From a bacterium (GTDB lineage Bacteria > SAR324 > NAC60-12): DNA of 19,284 nucleotides. The translations under genes were made by a program, and so were the position numbers. Shown here one piece after another: positions 5,594 through 6,962 of the stretch (its first letter is position 1; every line of letters begins with the position of its first letter). The stretch is taken from contig CBDDTI010000502.1 in assembly GCA_965233585.1 (NCBI GenBank), positions 1-19,284 of the forward strand, written 5' to 3'. The notes beneath the pieces were generated by a model. That model was not told where the DNA came from and did no database searches. It was given only the letters and a program-made list of their open reading frames with translations.

Positions 5594-6136
5594 ATGGAAG
5601 TGATGGTCAGCAATGTTAAAATCAGTTGCAAAATTCGTCTCATCGACAGTGACAAAATTTCTTTTAATACCGATAATGTACTAAAACATTATAATAATTT
5701 TACTGTTGTTAAAAAAAAATATTCTTTTATTGTGTTTACTAAAACAAAGCAAAATCGAAATTTCCACGTAAATATTACTAAAATCCCTTCCACAGAGCAT
5801 ATACCAAAAGCATTAGACGAATTAAAACTTGTTATAAGTAGTAAATTTATTACTGAAAAGTTTAAAATAGAAAACATGACTTGTTTGTGTCATATGTCAT
5901 CAAAAATCAATTTATTAACATTTTACAACAATTTGAAATTAAATGTAGATTTTGAAATTATCCAAAAGAGATACGACTCTGAGAAATTTCCTGGAATGTT
6001 TTTAACATTAAAAAAGTGTTCTGCTTTAATATTTTCGTCTGGAAAAATAGTAATAATTGGAGCTTCCTGCGAAAAAGACGCTACACAAGGAATAAAAATT
6101 ATTTCTGAATTGCTGAAAAAATATAAAACTGAATAA
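5594..6136 (+). CDS. TBP: TATA-binding protein (TBP)-like factor, element-encoded, 180 aa
   Basis: C-terminal repeat FKIENM...YDSEKFPGMF...SALIFSSGKIVIIGA matches the TBP fold signature; the N-terminal repeat is degenerate. First ATG is at 5594; the track start at 5540 is a TTG overlapping the capsid gene. Confidence 0.9.
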   Translation: MEVMVSNVKISCKIRLIDSDKISFNTDNVLKHYNNFTVVKKKYSFIVFTKTKQNRNFHVNITKIPSTEHIPKALDELKLVISSKFITEKFKIENMTCLCHMSSKINLLTFYNNLKLNVDFEIIQKRYDSEKFPGMFLTLKKCSALIFSSGKIVIIGASCEKDATQGIKIISELLKKYKTE

Positions 6137-6242
6137 ATTCAATATAATAAAAGATTACGTCGGATTATTTGTAAAATCAGTTAAATTTTGAACTTCGTGC
6201 AATAAACAATGAAATTATGTTCAAAAATTAGATTGGATTAAA

Positions 6243-6962
6243 ATGTGCATTCATCAATATATAATAGAAGACACCAGACAAGGAGACGTAGTGTGCACCG
6301 AGTGTGGTTTAGTTATTGATAAAATATATTGTGATCCAAATTTAGAAACAAAATGGGAAAAAATAAAAAATTTAAATGAAGAATTTGAACAAAACAGCGA
6401 ACATTTAAAGAAGGAAAAAAATATTTTAAAAAATTTATGTAATAAATTACATTTAAATAATGATGTTACAAACACTATTTTTAATTTGTGGTCAGAAATA
6501 GCAGCGTGGCATTATCAAAAAAATGGAAAAATTAAAATTAATCCAAAAGGCTTAATTGCTATGGCATTGTATCAAAGTTTAATAGAGGAAAAAATTCCCC
6601 GCCCAATAAGTCACTTGTGTCAGGAAATTGGTATTAGCCCAAAAACGGTATGGCGATGGATAAAATTATACAGACAAGATTCGACCAACACAATTAAAAC
6701 AGAAAATTCTATAAAAGCAAAAGATATGGCAGAATATTTTTTACAGCCTCTACAGTTAAATTATCAAGAGATGACAACTATAAAAGAAAAACTAAATAAA
6801 AATGAAAATAGTTCTTTTGCTCCTAGGACTTTATTAGCAGCATGTGCTTATGCCTTTTTAAAAGAAACAAGAGCACTATATCCGAGCGTCAAAAATACGG
6901 CTCGTATTTTAGGCGTCAGTGTTATGTCTTTATACAGATGTCTTAAAAGTCTAGAGCAATAA
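6243..6962 (+). CDS. TFIIB: TFIIB-like transcription initiation factor, element-encoded
   Basis: Zn ribbon CIH...EDTRQGDVVCTECGLV followed by two cyclin-fold repeats (LCNKLHL...IAMALY...IPRPISHLC; APRTLLAACAY...ILGVS..SL..C). Confidence 0.9.
   Translation: MCIHQYIIEDTRQGDVVCTECGLVIDKIYCDPNLETKWEKIKNLNEEFEQNSEHLKKEKNILKNLCNKLHLNNDVTNTIFNLWSEIAAWHYQKNGKIKINPKGLIAMALYQSLIEEKIPRPISHLCQEIGISPKTVWRWIKLYRQDSTNTIKTENSIKAKDMAEYFLQPLQLNYQEMTTIKEKLNKNENSSFAPRTLLAACAYAFLKETRALYPSVKNTARILGVSVMSLYRCLKSLEQ

Follow-up and report, generated by a model that had tools for sequence, protein, structure and literature searches.

A conserved pair of divergent TBP-like and TFIIB-like genes in a Polinton/Maverick element

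Virus-encoded basal transcription factors are known. TBP/TFIIB-type pairs are carried by Nucleocytoviricota, with the B263R-type TBP of African swine fever virus (ASFV) and poxviral VITF-3 as examples, the latter being presented in the available part of PMC12917281 as an atypical TBP/TFIIB pair. [quoted passage not shown] TBP genes are also reported, in the portion of PMC10675990 at hand, as sporadic in putative mirusvirus-derived elements, not Polintons, and in the available sections of 10.1101/2022.05.25.493380 and PMC11502894 TFIIB figures only as a giant-virus marker. Here, a TBP-like and a TFIIB-like gene are described from a Polinton/Maverick element lying in a stretch of DNA of 19,284 nucleotides (nt), contig CBDDTI010000502.1 of assembly GCA_965233585.1, the whole of which is referred to below as the window. 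The gene pair is real, conserved and selected, and the mechanism proposed for it is plausible.

The TBP-like gene (5594..6136, + strand) encodes, in the standard code and without interruption, a protein of 180 amino acids (aa) with two TBP-domain repeats. The Pfam TBP family (PF00352) matches its open reading frame (ORF) with E=1.1e-16 and 60.8 bits (cut-off 22.9), over residues 89-177 only, and 35 of the 36 PDB sequences recovered by phmmer at E<=1 are TBPs, the top one being 1mp9_A from Sulfolobus (1.9e-13). An AlphaFold2 model based on 25 family sequences, with a predicted local distance difference test (pLDDT) of 90.7 and a predicted template-modeling (TM) score of 0.79, consists of two beta-sheet/helix repeats, the first of them without the short helix H1. 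When this model was compared with the PDB using Foldseek, all rows listed to rank 44 were TBP chains, with E from 3.7e-10, and the alignments spanned the whole protein (189-200 columns, TM 0.56-0.73, identity 18-27%). The N-terminal repeat is detectable by fold alone, the C-terminal repeat by sequence too. Column conservation in the family is 0.68 for the first repeat and 0.62 for the second; the N-terminal repeat is thus conserved like the C-terminal one, which points to constrained novelty and not to decay.

Four phenylalanines, F36, F48, F132 and F147, are invariant in all 25 TBP-like family members, at positions which we take to be those of the DNA-kinking phenylalanines of TBP-TATA structures. 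With three canonical TBPs added to the alignment F48, F132 and F147 are still invariant, and F36 pairs with the phenylalanine of the canonical FPG. Gaps in the alignments to PDB sequences place the stirrup hairpin of the C-terminal repeat at two residues shorter than that of canonical TBPs. Searched against the PDB, the family profile scores five archaeal TBPs at 2.3e-21 to 4e-21 and all eukaryotic ones at 1.8e-15 or weaker. Sequence and predicted structure together indicate that the product of 5594-6136 is a two-repeat TBP-fold protein.

The TFIIB-like gene (6243..6962, + strand), likewise uninterrupted, encodes a 239-aa protein composed of a zinc ribbon of the C-x-H...C-x2-C type (residues 2-21), a linker (residues ~25-51) and two cyclin-like repeats (residues ~52-148 and ~159-239). 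Pfam Zn_Ribbon_TF is matched at E=4.3e-8 (33 bits, cut-off 29) and human TFIIB is the top PDB sequence match (E=2.1e-6), while the profile built from 22 members of the family matches residues 22-289 of human TFIIB, from the ribbon through the second cyclin repeat, at 3.4e-7. The predicted structure (pLDDT 71.7) contains a small beta ribbon and ten helices arranged in two five-helix repeats, the cyclin repeats being modeled at pLDDT ~74-91 and the ribbon and linker below 50. Its Foldseek matches are human TFIIB (3e-8), Pyrococcus TFB and Brf1 (2.5e-6 each) and Brf2 (2.7e-4), and, more weakly, cyclins (from 8e-4) and the Ty3 intasome bound to TFIIIB (7q5b, 4.5e-4). None of the 22 family members departs from the zinc ligands C2, H4, C18 and C21, and the same holds for all 14 sequences of an alignment that includes the distant loci described below. 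Conservation is 0.83 in the ribbon, 0.74 and 0.78 in the cyclin repeats, and 0.55 in the linker, which is short and variable in length. The proteins measure 207-258 aa, versus 316 for human TFIIB, and the window protein ends at the second cyclin repeat, without a C-terminal Brf-type extension. Taken with the predicted fold, these features indicate that the product of 6243-6962 has TFIIB architecture.

Between the two genes lies a spacer of 106 nt (6137..6242, + strand). An AATAAA read by eye at 6132-6137 overlaps the stop codon of the TBP-like gene. Close relatives of the TFIIB-like protein carry an N-terminal extension of 9-12 residues, the window counterpart of which (6209-6242) has lost the reading frame in a stretch of A residues; from a conserved internal methionine, at which several distant relatives also begin, the ORF is intact.

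A preliminary description of this DNA had presented the two ORFs as co-oriented, intronless neighbors within a Polinton, with a capsid gene before them and core-protein and integrase genes after them. ORF calls, Pfam searches and, for the capsid, protein-atlas leads agree with it on each of these points, including the neighbors, which are a capsid-like ORF (4238-5587, - strand) on one side and a small basic ORF, an integrase and a 581-aa ORF on the other. Its placement of both proteins far from their cellular orthologues is in keeping with an identity of ~20% to solved TBPs and TFIIBs, and the AlphaFold2 models with their best Foldseek matches (TBP 3.7e-10, TFIIB 3e-8) support the two folds.

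Both proteins belong to discrete families, as judged from their sequence relatives. Among 108 candidates, the TBP-like protein has relatives in 35 clusters at E<=2.8e-39, with 44-98% identity, and the same search returned one ordinary TBP at 3.7e-5. For the TFIIB-like protein 42 relatives were found by single-sequence search and 76 by profile; the profile matches comprise 73 clusters at E<=1.1e-39, with identity down to 33%, and, after a gap, three at 2.5e-7 to 2.2e-4. The Pfam TBP family is matched in all of the 25 aligned TBP-like proteins. The zinc ribbon is likewise recognized in each of the 22 TFIIB-like proteins aligned, the TFIIB repeat (at E<=0.01) in eight of them. Six identical longest-contig sizes (6759, 10894, 8217, 8156, 2254 and 6860) are common to both cluster lists, and co-occurrence of the TBP-like and TFIIB-like clusters is suggested from these shared sizes alone.

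A wider view of the TBP-like family was obtained by searching its profile against 1.84 billion representative proteins, which gave 3351 matches at E<=1e-3, 646 at <=1e-10 and 8 at <=1e-30. When the best 150 of the 3351 matches were re-scored, 105 matched in one stretch over both repeats (median 178 aa), 35 resembled ordinary TBPs, in that the C-terminal repeat of the profile matches both of their repeats, and 10 were fragments. The wide family, defined by the one-stretch architecture among these best matches, therefore holds at least 105 clusters at 50% identity. Phenylalanine or tyrosine occupies all four kinking positions in 100 of the 105, and phenylalanine all four in 78.

Canonical TBPs, unlabelled in both trees and classed by their match pattern, separate from this family. 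In a FastTree phylogeny of 158 rows, from which six of the 35 canonical rows were left out for length (>260 aa), the remaining 29 form one side of a branch with support of 100. In a quick IQ-TREE run under LG+C20 on 73 rows (every third wide-family row, 12 of the close family, 4 from the distant loci and 22 canonical), the split of canonical TBPs has a Shimodaira-Hasegawa-like approximate likelihood ratio test (SH-aLRT) support of 99. The TBPs of the distant loci fall among the wide family, indicating that at least part of it is Polinton-borne.

These loci come from a scan of the GTDB genome collection, in which the TBP-like profile gave 42 pattern matches, five of them confirmed, and the TFIIB-like profile gave 23, none of which was confirmed. 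The five contigs (L001 to L005: JAIXOW010000277, JAIXOW010000294, JAIXOW010000415, NZ_JBEIET010000157 and JAEMQE010000189) are filed in records of bacterial metagenome-assembled genomes titled Oxalobacteraceae, Flavobacterium and Lentimicrobium. Given their plainly Polinton-like content they look mis-binned, and the placing of eukaryotic or viral DNA in these bacterial genome bins is almost certainly an error of binning.

Gene order is the same in all five loci: TBP, TFIIB, a small ORF, an rve/chromo integrase and a large ORF. Every locus has a TBP-like ORF that matches Pfam TBP and measures 166-168 aa, except in L005, where the contig ends within it, and the TFIIB-like ORF (207-214 aa) matches the Pfam TFIIB repeat over its cut-off in every locus (23.8-29.6 bits) and the zinc ribbon with E from 8.9e-6 to 0.0065. 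The small ORF measures 123-138 aa and the rve and chromodomain integrase 377-389 aa. A divergently oriented capsid-like gene was found by tblastn in three of the five (L001, L003 and L004) and a protease in two (L003 and L004). L003 also carries the C-terminus of a family-B DNA polymerase (PolB), an A32 ATPase and a homologue of ORF124, a window gene described below, so that PolB, ATPase, protease, capsid and integrase genes lie within ~15 kilobases (kb).

In each of the distant loci the TBP ORF runs 34-67 nt into the TFIIB ORF (1411-1444 in L001, 616-649 in L002, 10474-10507 in L003, 10462-10495 in L004 and 337-403 in L005), as opposed to being separated by the 106-nt spacer in the window, and this overlap hints at coupled expression of the two proteins. 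The window TBP is 34-38% identical to its counterparts in the five loci, TFIIB 27-30%, the basic ORF 28-35% and the integrase 42-46%, and the TBP, TFIIB and integrase identities co-vary across locus pairs. Homology with the loci was recovered in profile-to-sequence comparisons with a probability of 99.8% (1.4e-29) for TBP and 96.9% (1.7e-10) for TFIIB. Going by these sequence comparisons, the gene pair is co-inherited with the integrase and capsid genes, and it is most likely a conserved accessory module of an old and diverse Polinton/Maverick lineage.

The ratio of nonsynonymous to synonymous substitutions (dN/dS) was obtained from Nei-Gojobori (NG86) counts with Jukes-Cantor correction. Only the L001 versus L004 pair is unsaturated (dS 0.58-0.85); for the others dS is >1 or undefined. 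In this pair the TBP-like and TFIIB-like genes have dN/dS values of 0.134 and 0.132, the basic ORF has 0.075 and the integrase 0.046. The saturated pairs gave ratios of 0.05-0.71, window-versus-locus TFIIB-like values reaching 0.56-0.71, and were not relied on. The L001-L004 ratios indicate that both factors are under purifying selection, somewhat weaker than that on the integrase.

A recent capture of host genes, or a pseudogene in decay, might be read into the domain names and into the out-of-frame N-terminal extension of the window TFIIB-like gene. This origin is refuted, and we give it practically no credence, on the ~20% identity to solved eukaryotic TBPs and TFIIBs, on the placement of canonical TBPs across a branch with support of 100 (FastTree) and 99 (quick IQ-TREE), and on a dN/dS of 0.13 together with full-length ORFs that are intact down to 33-38% identity. 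The trees, together with profile scores that favor archaeal TBPs (~2e-21) over eukaryotic ones (1.8e-15 or weaker), do not fit a recent capture from an animal host. The preliminary description had named such an unselected capture, as well as occurrence in a single copy, as findings that would overturn it; the former does not agree with the branch support and dN/dS just given, and the latter is contradicted by the 35 and 73 clusters and by the synteny in five of five loci.

Pfam searches of 15 window ORFs at E<=0.1 returned no RNA polymerase domain, nor was there one in the 34 ORFs of L003 and L004, one of these relatives being 20 kb, at E<=0.01, which carries the earlier remark that a polymerase gene is missing here beyond the window itself. 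The largest unexplained ORF of L003 (859 aa) has zinc fingers as its sole PDB matches.

The start codons of the divergent capsid-like and TBP-like genes are 6 nt apart in the window (5587/5594), as against 51-52 nt in L001 (888/941), L003 (9949/10001) and L004 (9939/9992). In the lineage of the window, the promoters must be situated inside coding sequence or elsewhere. TATA-like strings are present in the 51-52-nt spacers of these three loci and ~45-60 nt upstream of the large ORF of ~600 aa in the window, L001 and L004; both are regarded as leads only. An exact 13-mer, TATTTAAGAAAAA, occurs twice in the window (1114-1126 and 1867-1879), each time in intergenic DNA and ending ~20-30 nt before a start codon, that of the ATPase gene and of ORF124, respectively. 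It may be a TATA-like core promoter, although looser forms of this motif are no commoner than in shuffled sequence.

The element around the gene pair is a Polinton/Maverick. At its left, the C-terminal part of a protein-primed family-B DNA polymerase (299..1093, + strand) was recognized by its DTDS and KxY motifs, read by eye, and by tblastn in both directions with L003 and L004 (1e-43 to 5e-41); the first 298 nt of the window resemble nothing in the related loci, the PolB homology beginning at ~299. An ORF neighboring the PolB homology in L004 matches Pfam DNA_pol_B_2 at E=0.0012. In both L003 (2122-2890) and L004 (1013-1829) the C-terminal homology changes, at one and the same point, from one frame to another ~65-70 nt away, whereas the window reads through this region in a single frame; a short intron or a frameshift common to both loci could account for the break. 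An A32/FtsK-like packaging ATPase of 231 aa follows (1157..1852, + strand). Several of the window Pfam matches are weak, this one (Pox_A32 E=8.5e-4) and that of the protease below being under their cut-offs, but the homologues pass: the L003 ATPase matches Pox_A32 at E=1e-7 (32.2 bits, cut-off 22.8), and the proteases of L003 and L004 reach 21.6 and 27.1 bits against a Peptidase_C5 cut-off of 21.3. After the ATPase comes ORF124 (124 aa), with a homologue in L003, and then a 486-aa ORF (2278-3738) with two C2H2-type zinc-finger motifs, for which tblastn found no homologue in the five related loci and which may provide the element with a second protein that binds DNA or acts in regulation. The latter ORF contains an internal 96-nt duplication (2557-2652 versus 2668-2763, 75% identical).

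Next to these genes are an adenain-like cysteine protease of 160 aa (3752..4234, - strand; Peptidase_C5 E=0.0064) and the capsid-like ORF of 449 aa (4238..5587, - strand), which is divergent from the TBP-like gene. The capsid assignment is based on a DJR-like_dom match of the L003 homologue under its cut-off (E=2.9e-4) and on protein-atlas leads: in the closest clusters PF21738 DJR-like_dom occurs in 15-24% of members, and these clusters are eukaryote-derived, with Arthropoda and Echinodermata as the commonest labels, both observations serving as leads only. By tblastn the capsid-like ORF matches L003, L004 and L001 at 2e-56 to 1e-34. Downstream of the gene pair, the small basic ORF of 133 aa (6971..7372, + strand) has no family match; its position is kept in all five related loci, which it matches by tblastn at 2.4e-17 to 2.8e-12. 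The integrase (7379..8461, + strand; 360 aa) combines an rve domain (E=2.5e-9, 37.7 bits, cut-off 32.6) with a C-terminal chromodomain (Pfam Chromo, E=1.2e-4). It is followed by the 581-aa ORF (8468..10213, + strand), which is without a match in Pfam and PDB sequence searches and probably encodes a virion protein, Preplasmiviricota viral clusters being nearest to it (as a lead only). Homologues of ~600 aa stand after the integrase in all five loci, four of which (L001-L004) were matched by tblastn.

Just beyond the last Polinton ORFs on the right, a 32-nt unit is repeated in arrays, direct and inverted, with arms of up to 119 nt; these arrays extend over 11874-12590 and may be the terminal repeat region, and with it the right terminus, of the element. 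The left end of the element lies outside the window, and clear terminal inverted repeats were not found in L003. Pieces of a non-LTR (long terminal repeat) retrotransposon occupy 12726-13251 and 16462-19284, with reverse-transcriptase ORFs at 16832-17692 and 17942-18691 (RVT_1 E=3.6e-21) and with duplicated segments (12952-13251 versus 16462-16761, 95%; 12726-12773 versus 19237-19284, 98%). The guanine-plus-cytosine fraction climbs from ~0.3 to ~0.5 in this flank. Inverted repeats nested in one another (37-52 nt, 92% complementary) and a direct 88-nt repeat, located at 14719-14936, resemble a small foldback element or one of the miniature inverted-repeat transposable element (MITE) type. Scans of the window yielded no tRNA and no Rfam family at gathering score.

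The reading we lean toward, with moderate confidence, is that promoters of the element are served by a host nuclear polymerase, most likely Pol II, whose initiation there is nucleated by the private TBP/TFIIB pair. The TBP-like protein would bend a TATA-like box in these promoters, and the TFIIB-like protein would bind the TBP-DNA complex through its cyclin core and dock, through its zinc ribbon, a multisubunit RNA polymerase supplied in trans, which for an element with a chromodomain integrase residing in a host chromosome would most likely be host Pol II. The element would thereby gain an initiation complex of its own, independent of or competing with host TBP/TFIID and TFIIB. A private pair acting on a host polymerase is the most economical account of invariant ribbon ligands, retained kinking positions, a pair that is never separated, the absence of a polymerase gene and a chromosomal element with a chromodomain integrase. 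A precedent is the herpesviral TBP mimic, with which a nuclear DNA virus recruits host Pol II (PMC7498053). The diverged N-terminal TBP repeat and the short, variable TFIIB linker suggest that contacts which cellular TBP and TFIIB make there were lost or replaced. The recruitment of host Pol II, the private promoters and the bypass of TFIID were put forward in the preliminary description too, and we infer them in the same sense. A broader version, which we advance tentatively and hold to be the less probable one, is that a large, ancient branch of Polintons/Mavericks carries a self-contained, orthogonal initiation pair, the smallest viral pre-initiation kit known, and runs its promoters on host Pol II without TFIID or host TFIIB. 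On this broader version, the TBP-like family would be a previously unrecognised clade of the TBP superfamily, which may be related to the source of giant-virus TBP and TFIIB genes.

Several observations weigh against Pol II recruitment by the pair. The Pfam TFIIB cyclin repeat scores only E=0.002 and 18.5 bits in the window protein, under its cut-off of 23.6. The linker between ribbon and cyclin repeats of TFIIB holds the B-reader and B-linker; here it is short, modeled at low confidence and the least conserved part of the protein, so that the canonical Pol II functions in start-site choice and promoter opening may be absent. Searches of the window for a promoter motif shared by its genes gave 9 matches versus 5.58 expected, a result equalled in 26 of 200 shuffles, and 12 versus 6.40 expected, equalled in 4 of 200, which is not significant overall; only the two exact copies of the 13-mer stand out. 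As the window is without the left part of the element (PolB from ~299), it is mainly L003, examined at the Pfam level, that speaks for the lack of a polymerase. Finally, the window copy may be defective, since its PolB is interrupted or truncated and its TFIIB-like gene has the N-terminal extension out of frame.

The polymerase served by the pair could also be another one. It is unlikely, if the least so among the alternatives, that the pair loads the multisubunit polymerase of a co-infecting large DNA virus onto the promoters of the element, as part of a virophage-like lifestyle. TBP/TFIIB homologues pair with every known multisubunit polymerase system, poxviral VITF-3 included (PMC12917281, in its available part), giant-virus TBPs lead the viral proteins whose fold resembles the TBP-like model (E from 1.3e-9), and the element is without a polymerase of its own. 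However, a chromosomally integrated copy and a chromodomain integrase fit nuclear residence, identity to viral TBPs is 6-18%, and neither helper-virus genes nor a shared promoter motif were seen. Virophages, besides, mimic the promoters of their helpers and are not known to encode such factors. Recruitment of host Pol III or Pol I by a Brf-like or Rrn7-like protein, perhaps for transcribing small non-coding RNAs from the element or for holding it near Pol III genes, is less probable than a helper polymerase and is, in our judgment, improbable. The Foldseek matches to Brf1, Brf2 and the Ty3 intasome-TFIIIB complex (7q5b) are compatible with it, as are a B-reader-like linker that is not conserved and a gene pair upstream of the integrase in every locus; TFIIB chains are nonetheless the top matches by sequence and by fold, the Brf-type C-terminal extension is missing, and the window holds no tRNA or Rfam family at gathering score.

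Alternatively, the pair could act on something other than the promoters of the element. Its N-terminal repeat is diverged and its stirrup two residues shorter, which could alter binding to host partners, and no element-specific promoter motif is significant. These observations are compatible with a device directed at host transcription, be it one that counters silencing or a decoy or competitor that shuts off or reprograms the host by tying up its polymerase or general factors. That possibility is doubtful, ranking between the helper polymerase and Pol III or Pol I: the kinking-phenylalanine positions and the zinc ligands are kept family-wide, beyond the needs of a simple decoy, and the two genes are always together and often overlapping, which suggests that selection maintains a working complex. 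Proteins that bend DNA, as TBP folds do, encoded at a conserved position between virion genes and the basic-ORF and integrase genes, might also serve as architectural factors in protein-primed replication, packaging or integration-site choice. To our knowledge, however, the only role of a TFIIB-type zinc ribbon is the docking of a multisubunit RNA polymerase, and no change in the ribbon ligands is seen in this family; as we also know of no precedent for an architectural TBP/TFIIB pair, this is the least probable of the alternatives and very unlikely.

If host-polymerase initiation from private promoters by the pair is correct, the element would provide a natural, minimal and orthogonal promoter-recognition system for a eukaryotic nuclear polymerase. 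Such a system bears on how Polintons are expressed or escape silencing, on which TBP and TFIIB surfaces are truly indispensable, and on the evolution of viral transcription machinery in the lineage linking Polintons to larger viruses. It also bears on annotation, contigs of this type now being filed in bacterial genome bins.

In its gene content the element resembles Polintons/Mavericks, adintoviruses and mid-sized eukaryotic linear DNA (MELD) viruses, with matching PolB, rve integrase, A32-like ATPase, adenain-like protease and capsid-like genes. For this class of elements, a bare "TBP" label in an unspecified MELD virus or related element stands in the legend to Fig. 5 of Starrett et al. (PMC8502044, in the part available); the term TFIIB is absent from the available text of that article and of its preprint, in which neither a pairing nor its synteny, conservation or function is taken up. 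The terms of the pair are not mentioned in the portions at hand of 10.1101/2024.03.25.586562 and PMC11296320, nor in those of PMC12220804 and PMC13037468, where only an author name matched. The preliminary description had allowed that the arrangement might already be documented as common; beyond the bare legend label, no description of a TBP and TFIIB pair in Polintons, of its synteny or of its conservation was found in the open full-text literature, figures, supplements and subscription journals being outside this scope. Within the literature covered, a pair of this kind has not been described before and is new to the Polinton class.

Compared with the cellular and archaeal TBP and TFIIB/TFB, the two proteins share the same folds and domain order (a two-repeat saddle; a ribbon followed by two cyclin repeats) and keep the zinc ligands and the four kinking-phenylalanine positions. 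They differ in having only ~20% identity, an N-terminal TBP repeat that is unrecognisable by sequence and without H1, a shorter stirrup and a short, variable linker, and in being carried by a mobile, virus-like element. Among viral TBPs, the fold of the TBP-like model is matched by those of Heterosigma akashiwo virus (2.1e-9), Terrestrivirus (4.3e-8) and an asfa-like B263R homologue (3.8e-6), with identities of 6-18%. The herpesviral TBP mimic, a private TBP in a nuclear DNA virus without a polymerase, would be the closest analogue of the proposed working, although the TBP-like model resembles UL87 and BcRF1 only weakly in fold (E ~2e-4, TM 0.36-0.39). It is a large protein (the matches measure 577-733 aa) that, according to the excerpts of PMC7498053, binds the carboxy-terminal domain (CTD) of Pol II via an N-terminal domain of its own and works with five other viral proteins, none of which is reported there as TFIIB-like. 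The Polinton, in contrast, encodes a bare 180-aa saddle without a CTD-binding domain, together with a TFIIB-like partner. Nucleocytoviricota such as the giant viruses combine TBP and TFIIB with a multisubunit RNA polymerase of their own and herpesviruses rely on a lone TBP mimic, whereas an integrating element of 15-20 kb that carries both factors, shows no polymerase and keeps the pair in position down to ~30% identity would represent a different case.

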